The notes beneath the pieces were generated by a model. It was not told the DNA's origin. It saw only the letters and a program-made list of their open reading frames with translations, and made no database searches. A stretch of DNA of 64,000 nucleotides from positions 228,780,001 through 228,844,000 of the forward strand of contig OZ024742.1 of assembly GCA_964016885.1 (NCBI GenBank). Reading direction: 5' to 3'. This document shows positions 17,821 to 64,000 of this stretch, in pieces; the stretch's first letter is position 1, and each line of letters begins with the position of its first letter. The position numbers were made by a program, and so were the translations under genes. The DNA is from Eledone cirrhosa (taxonomy: Eukaryota).

Positions 17821-18125
17821 GTAGAGTCAAATAATCATGTAAGTGTAAGTGGCTGAGCATTCAACAATCACGTGTGCCCATAAAATAATTTCCTCCAATC
17901 AGAATGAGCGTGACACAAAATGTGACAATGCTGGATCTTTGAATTACATATTGTGTCACACAGATTGGCGTGGGAGTTACGATAAATGTACACATAGTTT
18001 TGGAATACTCAACCGCTTATACGTTCAGTTAATTGAATAAGGAAATGTTCATTGTCGAAACCGACGGAGGATACATCCTGTAAATAAACTATAGCTATCT
18101 TCTTCTTCTTCTTCTTCTTCTTCTT

Positions 18126-18188
<63 letters not shown>

Positions 18189-18406
18189 ATTGAATGCCAT
18201 GGTTGACGGAGGCTCGGCTCTGTAAGGTATTGTAAATTTTGACCGCTATAACAATTGTAAATTGTTTAAAACTTTAATCAAATTGTAGACAAAAACACCC
18301 TCCTCCTCGTGAGAGGGGTCTTTCAGTCCGTTATTTGGCCCTTCGGGGTTAAATAACCGCTTATTGGGTTTTGTGCCCAATATTTATTTTAAACCCCCCC
18401 AAAAAC

Positions 18407-20558
18407 ATGGCTACGAAAAAGAATTTTCACAAGTCACTCCCACTCATTCCGTCTTCTTCTTCCTCAATCGTCACTACAGCAGAGAGAAGATTGTCTCTCT
18501 CCCTCCCTTCTCTAAATGTGTCTCTCTCCCTCCCTTCTCTTTCGCAAGCGACGCCAGTAAAGAAAAATCACGTGCAAAGCATGGAACATTTCTCCACGAC
18601 GACGACAACGACGAAAAAGGTGTGCGGTAAATACGAAAACCCATTTCATTCGTCTGACGTCATGAATAATAGCAGTAGCAGCCGTAATAACAACAGCAGC
18701 AGCAACAGTGACAAGGAAAACAACAGTAGCAGCCGAAACAGCATCAGCAGCAGCATAAACAACATCAGCATTAGCAGCAATAGAGACAACAACAGCAGCA
18801 GCAACAACAATAACAACAACCACAGCAACAGCGGCGGCGGCAAGAGTCGTAGTACCTGCAGCAACAACAAAAGTAACAGCAGCTCTGACGACAACAACAA
18901 CAACAGCAGCAAAGAAAAACCAATCTCCTTTGCAGGTATCGCAAAGAACCTGGAAACCATCCTCATAACAAATGAGGAATTACAGGAAGCGAAGAAGATG
19001 GTGACGAAAACCGGACACCGAGCAATCTGCAAGGCAGCCGAAAAATTTTTCGAAACCCAACAGCACTGTACGGTGACGTACCGTACAGTAAGCACAAAAT
19101 TCCGTAGGGTTGAAAGAGCCACAGAGGCTCAAATACAAAAAGCCTTAGGGTCTGTGTGGCAGCGGAAAACGCATATCACCCGAGGCAAGAAATATGCCAC
19201 CGTAGACGTGCTTTTGCCACACCCCAGGAGGCAAACGCTCAATCCTTAGTGACCCTAAGGAGCGAGGAAATGGTGTTGATGCCCTCCTACTGCGGGTAAA
19301 AGATTGTGAGGGTCAAACTGACCCACGCCCCCCCCCCCCCCCCCCCGGGATGGCCCCTTCTTGGCTGTCCGCATCTGTCCTAGTCGGAATCGAGGACAAA
19401 ACAACTGTACTGCAAGTACAGAAAAGAGTAAGAGAAGATTGGGTCGGCACCTCCATTGAGATGTTAATCCAAACCAACCAGGAGTGCATCGAAGCCATCC
19501 CGGATGTGATAAACTTCGATAACGGCACTCAACTGGCCATAAGTGTTGAGGGCAAACGCCCGAAATACTTTCGTTGTGGATCGAAGACTCACCTCAGGGC
19601 CTTCTGCAACGAGAAGACCCTGAGAAAGGAGAAACCCCGCCTCCTTCCGAAACCGGCCCCACTGCTACCAGCAACAGGACAAGCGGCAACCAGGAACGAT
19701 AGGTCAGTGGGACCCATACCCACGCCACAGAAATCAAGAACAGCAGCGGCAGTGGAAGTATTAACAACAACAACAGTAATACCAACTGCAGCTGCAACAG
19801 AGACTCCACTGCAAACATCACCAACAACAACAAGTGAAAGAGTGGAGCTGGTACCCCTCCCCGACCTCACAGAATCAGACATGGAGTGTGAGGTGGGAGA
19901 GGGATGGCAAAAGGTCGCAAGAAGGCACAGACGCAGAAGCAGTGCATCGTCGCCTTCAAAAAGGGAGGAAAGAAATGAAAAAAGAGTAAAGGCTACTGCA
20001 AAGAGACTCACAGCAGCAACACCACCAACACCATCACCACCCACACTAGCACCACCATCACCACCGGCGACAACCCCACCGCCAACAACAACAACAACAA
20101 CATCTTCAACACCACCACCACAAGCACCAACATCGCAAACACAACAACAAAACACACACACCCAGCAACAACGACAAGAAAATAGCAGAACCACACCCCA
20201 CCCCCAGAAAAACAAATGCACGGCAATAAATACACACAACAAGAAACTAATGACTTACATAATTGAACACACAGACATTTCACAGCACGACTACATAATA
20301 CCAGCACCAATCAAAACACCAACGAACACAAGACTGGTAAAAATAGCACAGAAACAATACACAAACATTAAAACGAAATTCCCCAACGCAGTTGGTGATT
20401 TCAGAGACCTAGGAGGGACTCTCAACCGGAGAGTATATTCGGACATACTCATTGAAGAGCCAACGACCAGCCGAAGGGACGATTCAACGGTCCCTTCACC
20501 AGACGATCAAGTGAAAAGGGACGGAGAAACCATCCTTCCTCTACGAAAAGTACGGTAA
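18407..20558 (+). pseudogene. LINE ORF1 (gag-like), broken near 19210-19350
   Basis: Two ORF pieces; knuckle YFRCGSKTHLRAFC (CX2CX4HX4C with the first Cys replaced), preceded by ISVEGKRP. Long S/N and T/P low-complexity tracts. Confidence 0.75.
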
Positions 20559-58800: not shown

Positions 58801-61800
58801 TAAAATAACAGATTAAAGTTTAAGCAAAGAATCGCTGCTTTTACTCTTAACGGGATCTTCTGAAACTAACAAAGTCAATCTGTGAACGCAGAAGTGAATA
58901 TTTCAAAAAACGTTGCAACCGGAGGAAGACAGGAAGACGATACTTTGGATCGTGGAAACGTTCCCTGGTAAAGAACGGGAAAAAACGAATATAATACGTC
59001 ATTAATTGGAGAGGTGAAAAACAATTACACGCAAACACAAAACCACGTTTATGGTATAAAAGAAGCCGTAGACTAAAATTCTATTAGGTGGTTCATAGAG
59101 ACGTTCTCTGGCAATGAACGAAAAAAACGAAGATAATACGTCATATGTGGAGCGGGGAGAACAATTGGTGGCAAAGACAAAACCACGCAAATGGTATAAC
59201 TGAATTCGTAGACTAAAATTCTAACTAGGAAACCGAATGATTCTCGGCTTCAGAGTTAAGAATAAAGTAAATAAAATACAGAGGTAATTGAAGTTAAATA
59301 AATACATACACGCATCCATATACGTACATACACAAGCATACGCGAAAACACTCGCCATAGGTATACAAATACACGCACGTAAAAAAAAGAAAAGAAAAAC
59401 CCGCACGCACATAAAGAACCCACGCAACGCCTGTACTCGCACGCATACAAAATTATACGCAAAGTACACATAAAAATATATATTGAACATATATATATAT
59501 ATGTGTTTGTGTGTGCGTGTATACATATAATTAAATAAACGTATATAAATAACTAAATACGTATATAACAAGCGCACACACATACCTACATGTAAATACA
59601 CATGTTTGGAGACGTACGTCAACCAAAACACAAAGTACACATATACACACACCCTACATACGTACGAACCCGCATACACACACCGCATATGTACCAGAAT
59701 ATATAATATATACGCCATAACATATACAATCAAATATGCGTACGAGAAAGTATACGTACCTACACAAAACATACAGGTAATATATACTTACCTATACAAA
59801 TAAGTAATGGTATAAACATAACATATACTTAGCTACCACATCAAGTCGTAAAATATCCGTGTATAGATCGTACTATCTGTTAGGGTATAATGTGGGGCTG
59901 TAATACAGGAAAGTTTTGTGCAACTTATGTTTACAAGCCGAAATTGCCTCAGATTTTTTGTTTAAGATGTTGACTTTGGCGTAGAGTATTTCCAGGGCCT
60001 CAGTGGCGCAGAGGTCACATGGTCTTTTATTTCCGTTATACGATCTAGCCCTAGCTAGGATCTCCCAGTGTAACTTATATTGGGTGTGGTTGTCTTTTAG
60101 ACTCCAGATATAAGCTGAAAGTGACGTCATATTCCTTCTTAAAGGGTAACGAAAAGAATGGGTATGCATGTAAAGACGCTGCTTGAATCTATTGGCGGTT
60201 AACCCTATGTAGGCCCTACGGGACGTGGGTGTTTCAACCTTACATTTGTAGACAATGTTACTAGAGAGGCATTTCCTGGATAGGGGCAGTCAACCCGATT
60301 CCTATAATTACAGTTAGTACTAACTAGAGGGTTGCACGTGTTCCTACGGCTAGGTAGTTTAGCTAAATTTGAAGCTGTGATGTTATGTGCAAGGTTAGGA
60401 GTCGTATAGTAAGACATTTTAATAGTATTTTTATTAAAAATGTTACTATATTTATGTGTAGGGGGAAAATGCTTCGTAATAAGGGATAGAAAGATCTTAG
60501 CTAATGGTTTGGCCACCTCCATATTATATGGTGGGTTATACCATATAATGCGTCGGGATCTATTTCTTCTAGGTCTATTCTCGTACTCTGTATAAGCTAC
60601 CTTATCGACAAATCCACTCCGAGCAAGAGCTTCATTTTAATATATGGAATGGTCGTTGAAAATATGCTCGTTAGTAGATAGACAGGAAAGCCTCAAAGAA
60701 ACGTTTCTTACCAAATTCTTGGTTATGCTGGCAGGATGGTTAGAATGCTTACTTATGTAATTAAGCGTATCATTCGGCTTTCTATACGGGTAATGCAAGC
60801 CATTCGATAAATTGAGGGTAACGTCGAGGTAATTACGACCGAGAGGTTGGTCTCAACCTGTATGGAGAGGTTGAAGCCTTTAAAGAATGATGTGAGTTCT
60901 TTTGTGAACCTGTCGCAAGCACGTGGGCAACACTTAGTCATAGTCAAAAGACCATCATCACGGTACAAACCACCGCACACATTGGGGAATTCGTCCTTGA
61001 TAGAGAAAAGAAGGAAAAGGCTGATAAGATCAGTAACCTCCGCAGAATCGCTGGCGCCCATACTCACGTCGAATGGGATACTATTAGATTTTTTAATCCA
61101 AATAGAGTCGTCGAAATTAATCACCGACTTACGGGCATTGAGGATGACATCAAGTTCGAAATCCTTAACCACAGTGAGTGTTTTAGCGAAATTGATAACT
61201 CTAAGGAGAAGTGGTAAAGTGATGGAGGAGTAGTAATTATATAAAACGGCAATGTTCCTTGTTGCATATGCCGTTGAACCAATCAATCACCGCGAAAGAA
61301 TTGTTCCACAGTGCAAGAAGGGCCAAACTTCTAATTTCAGGTATAATTCGATCAAGAATCCTTTTACTAAGTCTACCTAAATCGGACTTCGTAGGGTTAA
61401 GTAGCCGAACAGAGGTGTTGTTCGGAAAATTGGATTTGTGATCCTTCAGGGTAAAGTGGGGGAGAAATAGGGTCCAGAGGTTCAATCCGGTCCAGAATAT
61501 TGAGATCGGAGGTGATTTTAAACCCAGCATCGTTGATTTCATTAATGACGCTCCGATTAGTTTTACAGTAATCCTTAGTTACAGCATTATGTAGCAGTTG
61601 ATGGTAAGTACTGCGCTCCACTTAATATAGATTGCCAGTTTTGTCGCAATGGACATACACGGCATTAGAATCCTTAATAGAACGAATTCTATTTTTCAGG
61701 TCCTGCTGGAAGGAATTGCTCCTATTCCGAAATTTGATACTCCGTATGAGTTCCAAGACATCATTTTCGAAGGGTTACTCGGAGGGTTATTATAGGTTTT

Positions 61801-62305
61801 AAACCCAAATTTATCCTGTTTGTTGTCAGCTTTTCCCTGATTATCGAAATAAAAGGCACGCCAACGCAACTTTTTAATGAACGCGTCTGTTTTCTGTATC
61901 ATGAGTTTTAGGTATGTTTTCCTGCTTGGTACGGGTATGTTCTTTGCAGAAATATTCAGATGTTGTTTCTGCATGATGAATATAAGTCAATAGAGTGCTC
62001 AACCGAAGGAGCCAAATAGTAATAATAATATATTTGAACACTAAAATCCAAAGAGGGCTCGATAAGGATAAATATATATAAAATATATAAGAACCGTAGA
62101 GCAAATATTTATTAAAATAACAGATTAAAGTTTAAGCAAAGAATCGCTGCTTTCATACTTAACAGGATCTTCTGAAACTAACAAAGTCAATCTGTGAAAG
62201 CACTCGCCATAGGTATACAAATACACGCACGTACACACAAAAAAACCCCCAAAACCCACAAGCACATACAGAACCCACGCAACGCCTGTACCCGCACGCA
62301 TACGA
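58797..62305 (-). mobile_element. Near-complete Penelope-like element with direct terminal repeats
   Basis: 58797-58885 matches 62107-62197 and 59349-59450 matches 62201-62303. The 3' end abuts (TA)n. HHR-like motifs at 58809-58882 and 62121-62194. Confidence 0.88.
59873..61974 (-). pseudogene. PLE RT plus C-terminal GIY-YIG endonuclease, several frameshifts
   Basis: KNIPVPS..KLRWRA, DKTGN, GLYRDDGL, KHFPPTHKY..FNKNTIKMSY, CNYRNRVDCP linker, AYIGL, TSLSAYIW, CDLC..E, LNKKSE..CKH. Confidence 0.9.
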
Positions 62306-63127
62306 AATGTATAACCTGTAAAATAAGCCCCCATATTAACTGTAAAACTAGAAATGTAGTATATAGCATAAGATGTACTGAAGGACAATGTAGAGACAAA
62401 AATATAGTGTACATAGGTGAGACAGCTCGTAGTGTAGGGGAACGGATAAATGAACACTGGCGAGATCTTCAAGATAGTAAAGAATCATCTGTACTCTACC
62501 AACATGCTAAAATAGAACATAAGGGTAAATTAGAGAACATAGAAATAAAAATAGAATCTACAACCAGAAAAGACGCAATGTTTAGACAAATGACAGAGGC
62601 AATAAACATAAAAGAATTACAACCAAAATTAAATAGAAAATATGAGTGGAACAGCAACATCACAACTTACAATTAAGGACAAAATGAAAACACACACGCA
62701 CACAGAACAAACAATCAGCCGGTAACATGTAAAGAAACAAATAAATAAACGAATATAAACACACACAGATACCCGGATGTGGCGCATGCGCAGACTGAGC
62801 ACACAACACACACACAGAAACAAAATGGCGTAGGACAGAACAAAGGAGAGGCACAAAAACAAAGAAAAGAATCCCCAGTCACTGAAGAGGTCACAGAATG
62901 TGTGACCAAAGAACTTTGACAATATATAAACAACCATCTGGTTGTGGAACCACCAACCAACCGGAAATTTATAAATTCCTCAATTTATAAATTTATTATA
63001 ATAAATTGAAGTGAAAGCAACTGGTACGTGTGTTTCTTATTGGCAACATGACCCTCCCAAAGTATAACAATATCGGTTTCAACACACGTTTTCAGATAAA
63101 GAATCTTGCTAAACAAATTCAGAAACG

Positions 63128-63130
<3 letters not shown>
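62305..63130 (+). mobile_element. 3' fragment of a different PLE family: GIY-YIG (to stop at 62676) plus terminal repeat with a damaged HHR (about 62877-62920)
   Basis: CITC..NCKTRNVVYSIRC..C..YIGETARS..ERINEH..SVLYQH..H..RQMTEA..LNRKYEW. The 3' end lies in (TA)n. Confidence 0.88.
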
Positions 63131-63177
<47 letters not shown>

Positions 63178-63180
<3 letters not shown>

Positions 63181-64000
63181 AATATAGACATAGAATATTC
63201 GAAAATATTCTGTATGTTTATAATAAACATTTTGAAGACCTAATCGCTATAGAATAGAATACGTCACGTATTACAATTAGATTCTCGATAAAAGCAAGGG
63301 AAGTAAGTCTACGCGTTTCATTCTTGTTAGAATTCATCAGGACTACATATCCAGTGCTTTTATCGAGAATGACACAGCTAGAGACTTATAGAATACTTAG
63401 CTGTGTACAGGAACTGGTTTGAAAGAGCGGTTGCCGGTCCGGCAGAAATTAGAAATTGGAATAAATGCTCTGAAATAGCGATATATATGTGAATATAGAC
63501 ATAGAATATTCGAAAATATTCTGTATGTTTATAATAAACATTTTGAAGACCTAATCGCTATAGAATAGAATACGTCACGTATTACAATTAGATTCTCGAT
63601 AAAAGCAAGGGAAGTAAGTCTACGCGTTTCATTCTTGTTAGAATTCATCAGGACTACATATCCAGTGCTTTTATCGAGAATGACACAGCTAGAGACTTAT
63701 AGAATACTTAGCTGTGTACAGGAACTGGTTTGAAAGAGCGGTTGCCGGTCCGGCAGAAATTAGAAATTGGAATAAATGCTCTGAAATAGCGATATATATG
63801 TGAATATAGACATAGAATATTCGAAAATATTCTGTATGTTTATAATAAACATTTTGAAGACCTAATCGCTATAGAATAGAATACGTCACGTATTACAATT
63901 AGATTCTCGATAAAAGCAAGGGAAGTAAGTCTACGCGTTTCATTCTTGTTAGAATTCATCAGGACTACATATCCAGTGCTTTTATCGAGAATGACACAGC
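63178..64000 (-). repeat. Tandem array of a 311-bp HHR-containing unit (retrozyme-like), at least 2.6 copies, running off the window
   Basis: Units start at 63178, 63489 and 63800 and are identical by eye. Confidence 0.93.
63306..63344 (-). ncRNA. Type I hammerhead ribozyme, intact; repeated at 63617-63655 and 63928-63966
   Basis: Reverse complement: agtc CTGATGA attct aaca agaat GAAA CGCG TA gact. Perfect core, 5-bp stem II, palindromic ACGCGT. Confidence 0.9.

Follow-up and report, generated by a model that had tools for sequence, protein, structure and literature searches.

Circular RNAs and ribozyme cleavage have been demonstrated for metazoan non-LTR retrozymes of coral, mussel and axolotl (Rtz_331 and Rtz_353; Cervera and de la Pena 2020, PMC7229834), and the copying of such circles by reverse transcriptase was put forward in that work as a proposal, with Penelope as a "strong candidate". 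Vertebrate non-LTR retrozymes have been described as Penelope derivatives (Li, Clavereau and Pollet 2026, bioRxiv 10.64898/2026.07.22.740005), a link drawn from sequence likeness to terminal repeats and presented together with a preference for local tandem amplification. In the accessible text of both studies, the return of retrozymes to the genome and the enzyme responsible are still proposals. Penelope-like elements leave insertions with an inverted, 5'-truncated copy and a 30-40-bp tail in (TA)n targets (Craig et al. 2021, PMC8557442), and the origin of this tandem or inverted layout was called undefined in that paper. The purified Anolis Penelope element cuts and extends both strands, two internal start sites define its tail, and its insertion in vitro, for which uncut RNA was used, did not depend on cleavage by the ribozyme (Frangieh et al. 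2024, PMC11167929). Metazoan type I hammerheads with a short palindromic helix III were proposed to cut in multimers and not in monomeric circles, and U3-A8 occurs naturally in place of C3-G8 (Cervera and de la Pena 2014, PMC4209133).

The Eledone family described here was encountered in a window of 64,000 nt (G000:C3:228780001-228844000, C3 being the contig that carries it in a genome of 3.0 Gb), and can be assigned to the non-LTR retrozymes with high confidence. It is dispersed, and like metazoan retrozymes it consists of non-coding tandem units within the 170-400-bp size range, low in GC and with one type I hammerhead each, its predicted circle is highly self-paired, and Penelope-like elements occur in the same genome (PMC7229834). 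The units contain no LTR, PBS or ORF, and the array lacks the reverse transcriptase plus GIY-YIG frame of an autonomous Penelope-like element. In place of the type III hammerheads in two LTRs and the 4-bp duplications of plant-type LTR retrozymes, it has type I units in (TA)n. In contrast to metazoan retrozymes with demonstrated circles and cleavage, the Eledone family has both as predictions, and its inverted arms, fixed start sites and microsatellite target are not described for metazoan retrozymes in the accessible text of PMC7229834.

As in vertebrates, tandem type I units of about 310 bp occur alongside Penelope-like elements; however, the link to Penelope here is an insertion footprint, with no terminal-repeat likeness found, and most arrays appear to have been born multimeric (compare 10.64898/2026.07.22.740005). 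Neptune/Naiad-type Penelope-like elements share with the family the inverted 5'-truncated copy, the tail at one end, the (TA)n target, the two internal starts and the apparent extension of both strands (PMC8557442, PMC11167929), but the Eledone family has no protein, and its 310-bp units number up to 45 per arm. In addition, its short end appears to use (UA)4 pairing, whereas the Anolis element starts at sites non-homologous to the target (PMC11167929). In the literature covered, in which subscription journals were poorly represented, no retrozyme insertion layout with inverted arms or a tail was found described, although such loci may appear in supplementary material of PMC7229834 or of the 2026 preprint.

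The window array and its hammerheads

The array at the end of the window has a tandem period of 311, with 2.7 copies, a 100% match and zero mismatches at lag 311 from 63170 onward (Table 1). The identical 311-bp units reported in the first-pass annotation, which was made from the window alone, were therefore recovered as described, and the array does meet genomic (TA)n at its internal (AT)4, where the junction with (TA)24 was found. The commonest variant of the family is 310 bp, and the 311-bp variant of the window is a minor one (1,143 exact matches genome-wide). The longest open frame overlapping the array has 84 codons and lies partly in the flank. Unit positions are numbered from the predicted cut along the ribozyme strand; lineage-wide length variants, in four spellings, occur at unit positions 2-3 (window 63308-63307), 2-3 nt past the predicted cut, and may reflect either a tuning of helix I or scars of former joining.

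On the minus strand, each unit has a single type I hammerhead motif; these motifs, which start at 63340, 63651 and 63962, account for all pattern matches in the window. It comprises CUGAUGA, a 5-bp helix II (AUUCU/AGAAU), GAAA, the GUA triplet and helix I (GUAGUC/GACUUAC), while helix III is a single A-U pair capped by the palindromic loop CGCG. The motif had been called perfect; its presence in each unit stood, but that word is too strong for a 1-bp helix III and for a motif without an Rfam match at the gathering threshold, the best being only HH9 (E = 0.46). The 16-bp stem and the hairpins that had been pointed out are present in the sequence, and nearly all of the hairpins also appear in the circular minimum-energy fold. 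Folded as a circle, the minus-strand monomer reaches -67.2 kcal/mol with 59% of bases paired (z = -4.5 against 100 dinucleotide shuffles), and the plus strand folds equally (z = -4.9), so folding alone does not identify the strand. In the minimum-energy fold of a dimer (1.4 units), two ACGCGU palindromes are paired into a double hammerhead, as has been described for metazoan motifs whose helix III is short (PMC4209133), and with its 1-bp helix III the motif is predicted to need a neighbouring unit to pair. A 1-bp helix III with a palindromic tetraloop and, in the main haplotype, a U-U pair at the helix II base are shared with axolotl motifs (PMC7229834). The short palindromic helix III and U3-A8 are likewise those of dimer-active metazoan hammerheads, from which the Eledone motif differs in its GUA triplet and in that its activity is predicted (PMC4209133).

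Table 1. Features of the array and its neighbour (window positions)
Feature	Position	Strand	Remarks
(TA)24 target tract	63130..63177	.	final 8 bases common with the unit's internal (AT)4
Left arm, portion inside window (2.7 of 5.87 units)	63170..64000	-	minus is the ribozyme-bearing strand; outer short end in (UA)4, unit position 140
One 311-bp unit, window variant	63178..63488	-	
16-bp stem closing the hammerhead	63281..63370 (63281-63296 with 63355-63370)	-	
Type I hammerhead motif, unit 1	63299..63352	-	predicted cut 63310/63309 after GUA
Type I hammerhead motif, unit 2	63610..63663	-	predicted cut 63621/63620
Type I hammerhead motif, unit 3	63921..63974	-	predicted cut 63932/63931
Putative initiation/tail box, unit positions 129-173	63448..63492	-	mapped outer ends at 129-140 or 166-173; central 20 nt common to sister clade
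Neighbour, outside the element: 3' part of young Penelope-like element	62185..63129	+	its (TA)n is the insertion target
GIY-YIG piece of neighbour	62185-62673	+	
Decayed hammerhead-like motif of neighbour	62882-62911	+	
Tail of neighbour	63073-63129	+	

The window holds only half of the insertion. In full it consists of (TA)24, 5.87 antisense-on-top units, a junction, 5.92 identical sense-on-top units, (AT)n and unique DNA. The left arm extends past the window to G000:C3:228844996, where it joins the inverted arm via 1-2 nt of microhomology, and the right arm reaches G000:C3:228846836 and ends at unit position 166, a long end, in (AT)n. The tandem is thus real but inverts about 1 kb beyond the window end. 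No coding element lies beyond the array at this locus, which speaks against the annotation's alternative that the repeat is the terminal repeat of a coding Penelope-like element just outside the window. The hammerhead-like motif of the neighbouring Penelope-like element reads CAAA in the window copy and GAAA in other copies. Further upstream, window 59873-62000 (minus strand) contains broken reading-frame pieces for which Pfam gave no relevant match; by eye, these are presumably from another Penelope-type reverse transcriptase and endonuclease.

Layout and ends of the insertions across the genome

Exact-pattern matching of the genome gave 18,764 exact 35-mers of the unit and 18,004 exact degenerate hammerhead matches, corresponding to about 18,000-19,000 units or about 5.7 Mb (18,400 units of 310 bp). 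Exact junctions between a long end and (TA)n numbered 1,046, indicating at least as many sites; given a mean of 9.6 units per locus, roughly 1,500-2,000 loci are estimated. Well over a thousand young insertions, whose haplotypes can be read, are available in this family, and they tie a retrozyme to a Penelope footprint. A total of 79 loci were mapped, all on contig C1 except that of the window: 9 were picked by hammerhead, 40 were the first unseen long-end matches, and 30 were short-end matches without the long-end pattern. Among them, 67 are two-armed, 10 are single-armed, one has a second arm of 11 nt and one is cut by a run of N. The dispersed copies in (TA)n that the annotation had suggested looking for are therefore abundant, and the same layout at 67 of the 79 loci disposes of its worry about a single locus. 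No coding element is attached at the mapped loci, L052 adjoining one across a run of N; a reading of L052 as a chimera with a Penelope arm was set aside, as 200 N lie between the two. An older 312-bp subfamily, 93-95% like the unit, is represented by L135 and L136, the latter two-armed with the same two end classes.

All 67 two-armed loci have the same polarity, an antisense arm followed by a sense arm, which is what two target-primed cDNAs would leave. Where both ends are visible, every locus (64/64) has one short end (129-140) and one long end (166-173), 26-42 nt apart. This pairing was found in 8/8 hammerhead-picked, 37/37 long-end-picked and 19/19 short-end-picked loci, and since two of these samples were picked on one end, the far end is the actual test (the end of L130 was read by eye owing to a variant). 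Short ends align in register with (UA)4, while homology at the long end is limited to about 2 nt. Priming by cleaved (TA)n on (UA)4, as proposed in the annotation, accordingly explains the short end but not the long end at 166-173.

The inner ends are uniform round the unit (p = 0.56), with 2 of 90 within 5 nt of the cut against 3.2 expected; copying thus does not run off a cut 5' end. Arms have a median length of 3.4 units, and the cDNA ends are joined at scattered points, often with 2-5 nt of microhomology: among junctions without inserts, 22/34 share two or more bases, where 18% would be expected, and inserts are present in 11/45 junctions. Joining by fold-back at the unit hairpins was rejected as a rule, as an overlap of at least 8 nt was seen at only 2 of the 34 insert-free junctions.

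Taken together with the (TA)n target, these ends make a Penelope-driven two-ended insertion very likely. The inverted second arm and the Penelope-type tail are the most informative features, and both were invisible within the letters available to the first-pass annotation. Long palindromes are hard to assemble and two loci adjoin runs of N, which would suit an assembly artefact of collapsed or chimeric inverted repeats, but the differing flanks, junctions and many haplotypes over 79 loci, together with the occurrence of the unit among the contigs of 6 public runs, which come from 4 studies, reduce the probability of such an artefact to a negligible level. Most arrays are kilobase palindromes, and read-through would give long double-stranded RNA.

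The template of the two arms

When loci with at least one complete unit per arm are compared, the majority haplotype is the same on either side of the junction in 28/29 cases (21/22 in the long-end sample), versus 5.7-9% across loci, a degree of sharing reached in at most 10 of 20,000 permutations. Both arms therefore usually derive from one template, and the family allows a quantitative test of circle versus chain. If a linear multimer were copied by both enzymes, a single-unit variant of the donor would be mirrored in the two arms, whereas copying of a monomer would place a donor variant in every unit. In 13 of 59 two-armed loci, all passes in the two arms carry a locus-unique variant, and only 2 mirrored single-pass variants, beside 53 unmirrored differences, were found over 178.6 mirrored units, a count made outside unit positions 2-4 and outside locus C1_1.24, which is internally rearranged. 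Chain-only templates predict 26-39 mirrored events, an expectation that covers changes other than deletions, position 3 and rearranged pieces and that assumes donors as variable as the sampled loci, while some private variants may be assembly errors. Because variants fill both arms at 13 of the 59 loci and mirrored events fall far below the expectation, the pattern favours a monomeric, probably circular, RNA template, and a monomeric circle is the probable template in the usual case.

The same enzyme and the same two-ended insertion could also have used an uncut linear, or multimeric circular, donor transcript, with the uniformity of arrays coming from clonal donors and later expansion. The mirrored first-pass variants at L074 and L115, the recurrent variants that show expansion in long arms, a helix III so weak that cutting may be incomplete, and the use of uncut RNA in the in vitro Penelope insertion (PMC11167929) all suit such a chain, and the variants confined to the first pass of both arms at L074 and L115 count against the circle, as a monomeric circle cannot produce them. 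However, besides the shortage of mirrored events and the variant-filled loci, 33 haplotypes occur among 70 loci, each of which would need a separate clonal donor, and private variants are common to both arms in only 6/142 observations, indicating that homogenisation across the inversion is slow. Such a donor transcript is therefore considered unlikely as the general template. The two mirrored events, together with L065, in which the haplotype changes within one arm, call for a multimeric template, a template switch or conversion. Long arms (L054, L055 and L077, the last with 45 units) repeat private variants, which indicates that arrays expand or convert after insertion. In L117+L118 (G000:C1:97461510-97476481), where one arm has 45 units, the same block of private variants recurs 27 units apart, which may reflect later expansion or template switching.

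The rolling reverse transcription of a 311-nt circle suggested in the first-pass annotation gains from this test as regards the monomer; as regards the circle, a reverse transcriptase jumping from the 5' end to the 3' end of one cut linear monomer would give the same clonal arrays and shared arms without a covalent circle. Lineage-wide length variants only 2-3 nt from the cut site would fit such jumps, and the 16-bp stem, which holds the two ends of the monomer close, suits the circular and the linear route alike. On the other hand, 729 crossings of the cut site showed the four locus-wide spellings and 3 single substitutions but lacked private indels, and the inner ends show no enrichment at this site, making a linear monomer a rather improbable template.

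Returning to the circle, the family is a young, non-coding hammerhead repeat inserted into (TA)n as two head-to-head arms, and most likely its RNA is cut into monomers that become circles, one of which is probably copied many times from both break ends by a borrowed Penelope-type enzyme. An array would first be transcribed, and adjoining hammerheads would pair their ACGCGU palindromes, forming a predicted 6-bp helix III, and would cleave behind the GUA triplet. Since a single monomer could not pair in this manner, its circle, closed by a host ligase as suggested by other retrozymes, would be stable. A GIY-YIG endonuclease would then cut both (TA)n strands, with one 3' end primed on (UA)4 and the second one, aided by about 2 nt of homology, at a point 26-42 nt downstream. 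Two reverse transcriptases would roll on the same template, for the median of 3.4 units, before the two cDNA ends were joined at scattered points, often through microhomology of 2-5 nt. About one insertion in eight keeps a single arm; multimeric templates seem to have been used in a minority of cases, and the longest arms are reshuffled at a later stage.

RNA-level signals, the sister clade and Penelope-like families

On the ribozyme strand, A>G changes make up 9/29 locus-wide variants versus 8/86 private ones (Fisher p = 0.008), although the comparison was made post hoc and the variants are few and were counted apart from deletions, position 3 and rearranged pieces. The ratio of A>G to T>C is 9:3 among locus-wide and 8:14 among private variants (p = 0.035), and the changes lie mostly in predicted stems. 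This excess fits template editing or selection for, or tolerance of, G-U pairs, both of which act on RNA. It is possible, though slightly less likely than not, that the arrays record a pair of Penelope-type enzymes rolling round one ribozyme-made circle from starts 26-42 nt apart, with the conserved 45-nt box as the recognition signal and A>G changes of the circle written into every daughter unit. Within the young family, the 11 core bases varied at 130/18,134 (0.72%) versus 188/18,952 (0.99%) for the control, with counts clumped by locus.

An older sister clade, with units of about 320 bp and 2,138 exact box matches, was recognized at L140:318-810 (G000:C1:111534317-111534809) and L141-L170. 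It occurs tandem and inverted in (TA)n and keeps the initiation box, while its hammerheads have U3/A8 or C3/G8, with a palindromic helix III of greater length and closing stems that differ. Of 28 motifs, 18 have U/A at core positions 3/8, 9 have C/G and 1 has another combination. In an alignment of 13 motifs (12 rows chosen from 20 listed, the listing having required helix II pairing), 98% of cells pair and 6/10 pairs change on both sides. The clade shows core and stem covariation, which can be read as probable selection on the ribozyme within the clade.

These signals bear on a purely DNA-level origin, by satellite expansion or by excised DNA circles copied back, in which the hammerhead would be a passenger from an old Penelope terminal repeat. 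Long arms such as L077 with its 45 units are satellite-like, core conservation within the young family is weak, and tandem DNA would account equally well for the cyclic contigs of public runs. The 340-nt contigs in runs X4, X5 and X6 (one each; a 310-nt cycle plus overlap) were accordingly set aside as evidence for circles, since an identical cycle arises when tandem DNA is collapsed and the runs are of unrecorded type. Against such an origin stand the polarity fixed relative to the ribozyme strand in 67/67 two-armed loci, the two fixed outer ends with a Penelope tail, and the strand-specific A>G excess together with core covariation in the clade, which leave it highly improbable.

Two young Penelope-like families with long open frames co-occur with the retrozyme, and one of them adjoins the window insertion. 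This neighbouring family (L172-L199) is young, all 150 of 150 scored matches being at 98-100%, and has an 868-codon open frame in L196, the end of which carries the GIY-YIG piece. It is autonomous, with two fixed ends 56 nt apart (a 56-nt tail), head-to-head copies and one long/long case. The second family (L052:1083-3870; L119-L124) is C-rich, with open frames of 822-828 codons and an 823-aa product that gave a weak RVT_1 match; a minimal hammerhead-like motif lies about 100 nt before its (TA)n end. No unit sequence shared with an autonomous partner was found in about 510 kb of masked flanks or in 30 sister-clade loci, and the score of the unit against the neighbouring Penelope-like family was within that of shuffles; in the low-stringency partner comparison, most of the matches listed were (AT)n noise. 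The family defines a 310-nt substrate with two exact start sites that could be used in the Penelope assay already established in vitro. Other, unrelated hammerhead-like motifs occur in the flanks at L052:3921-3980 and in L048, L075 and L122.
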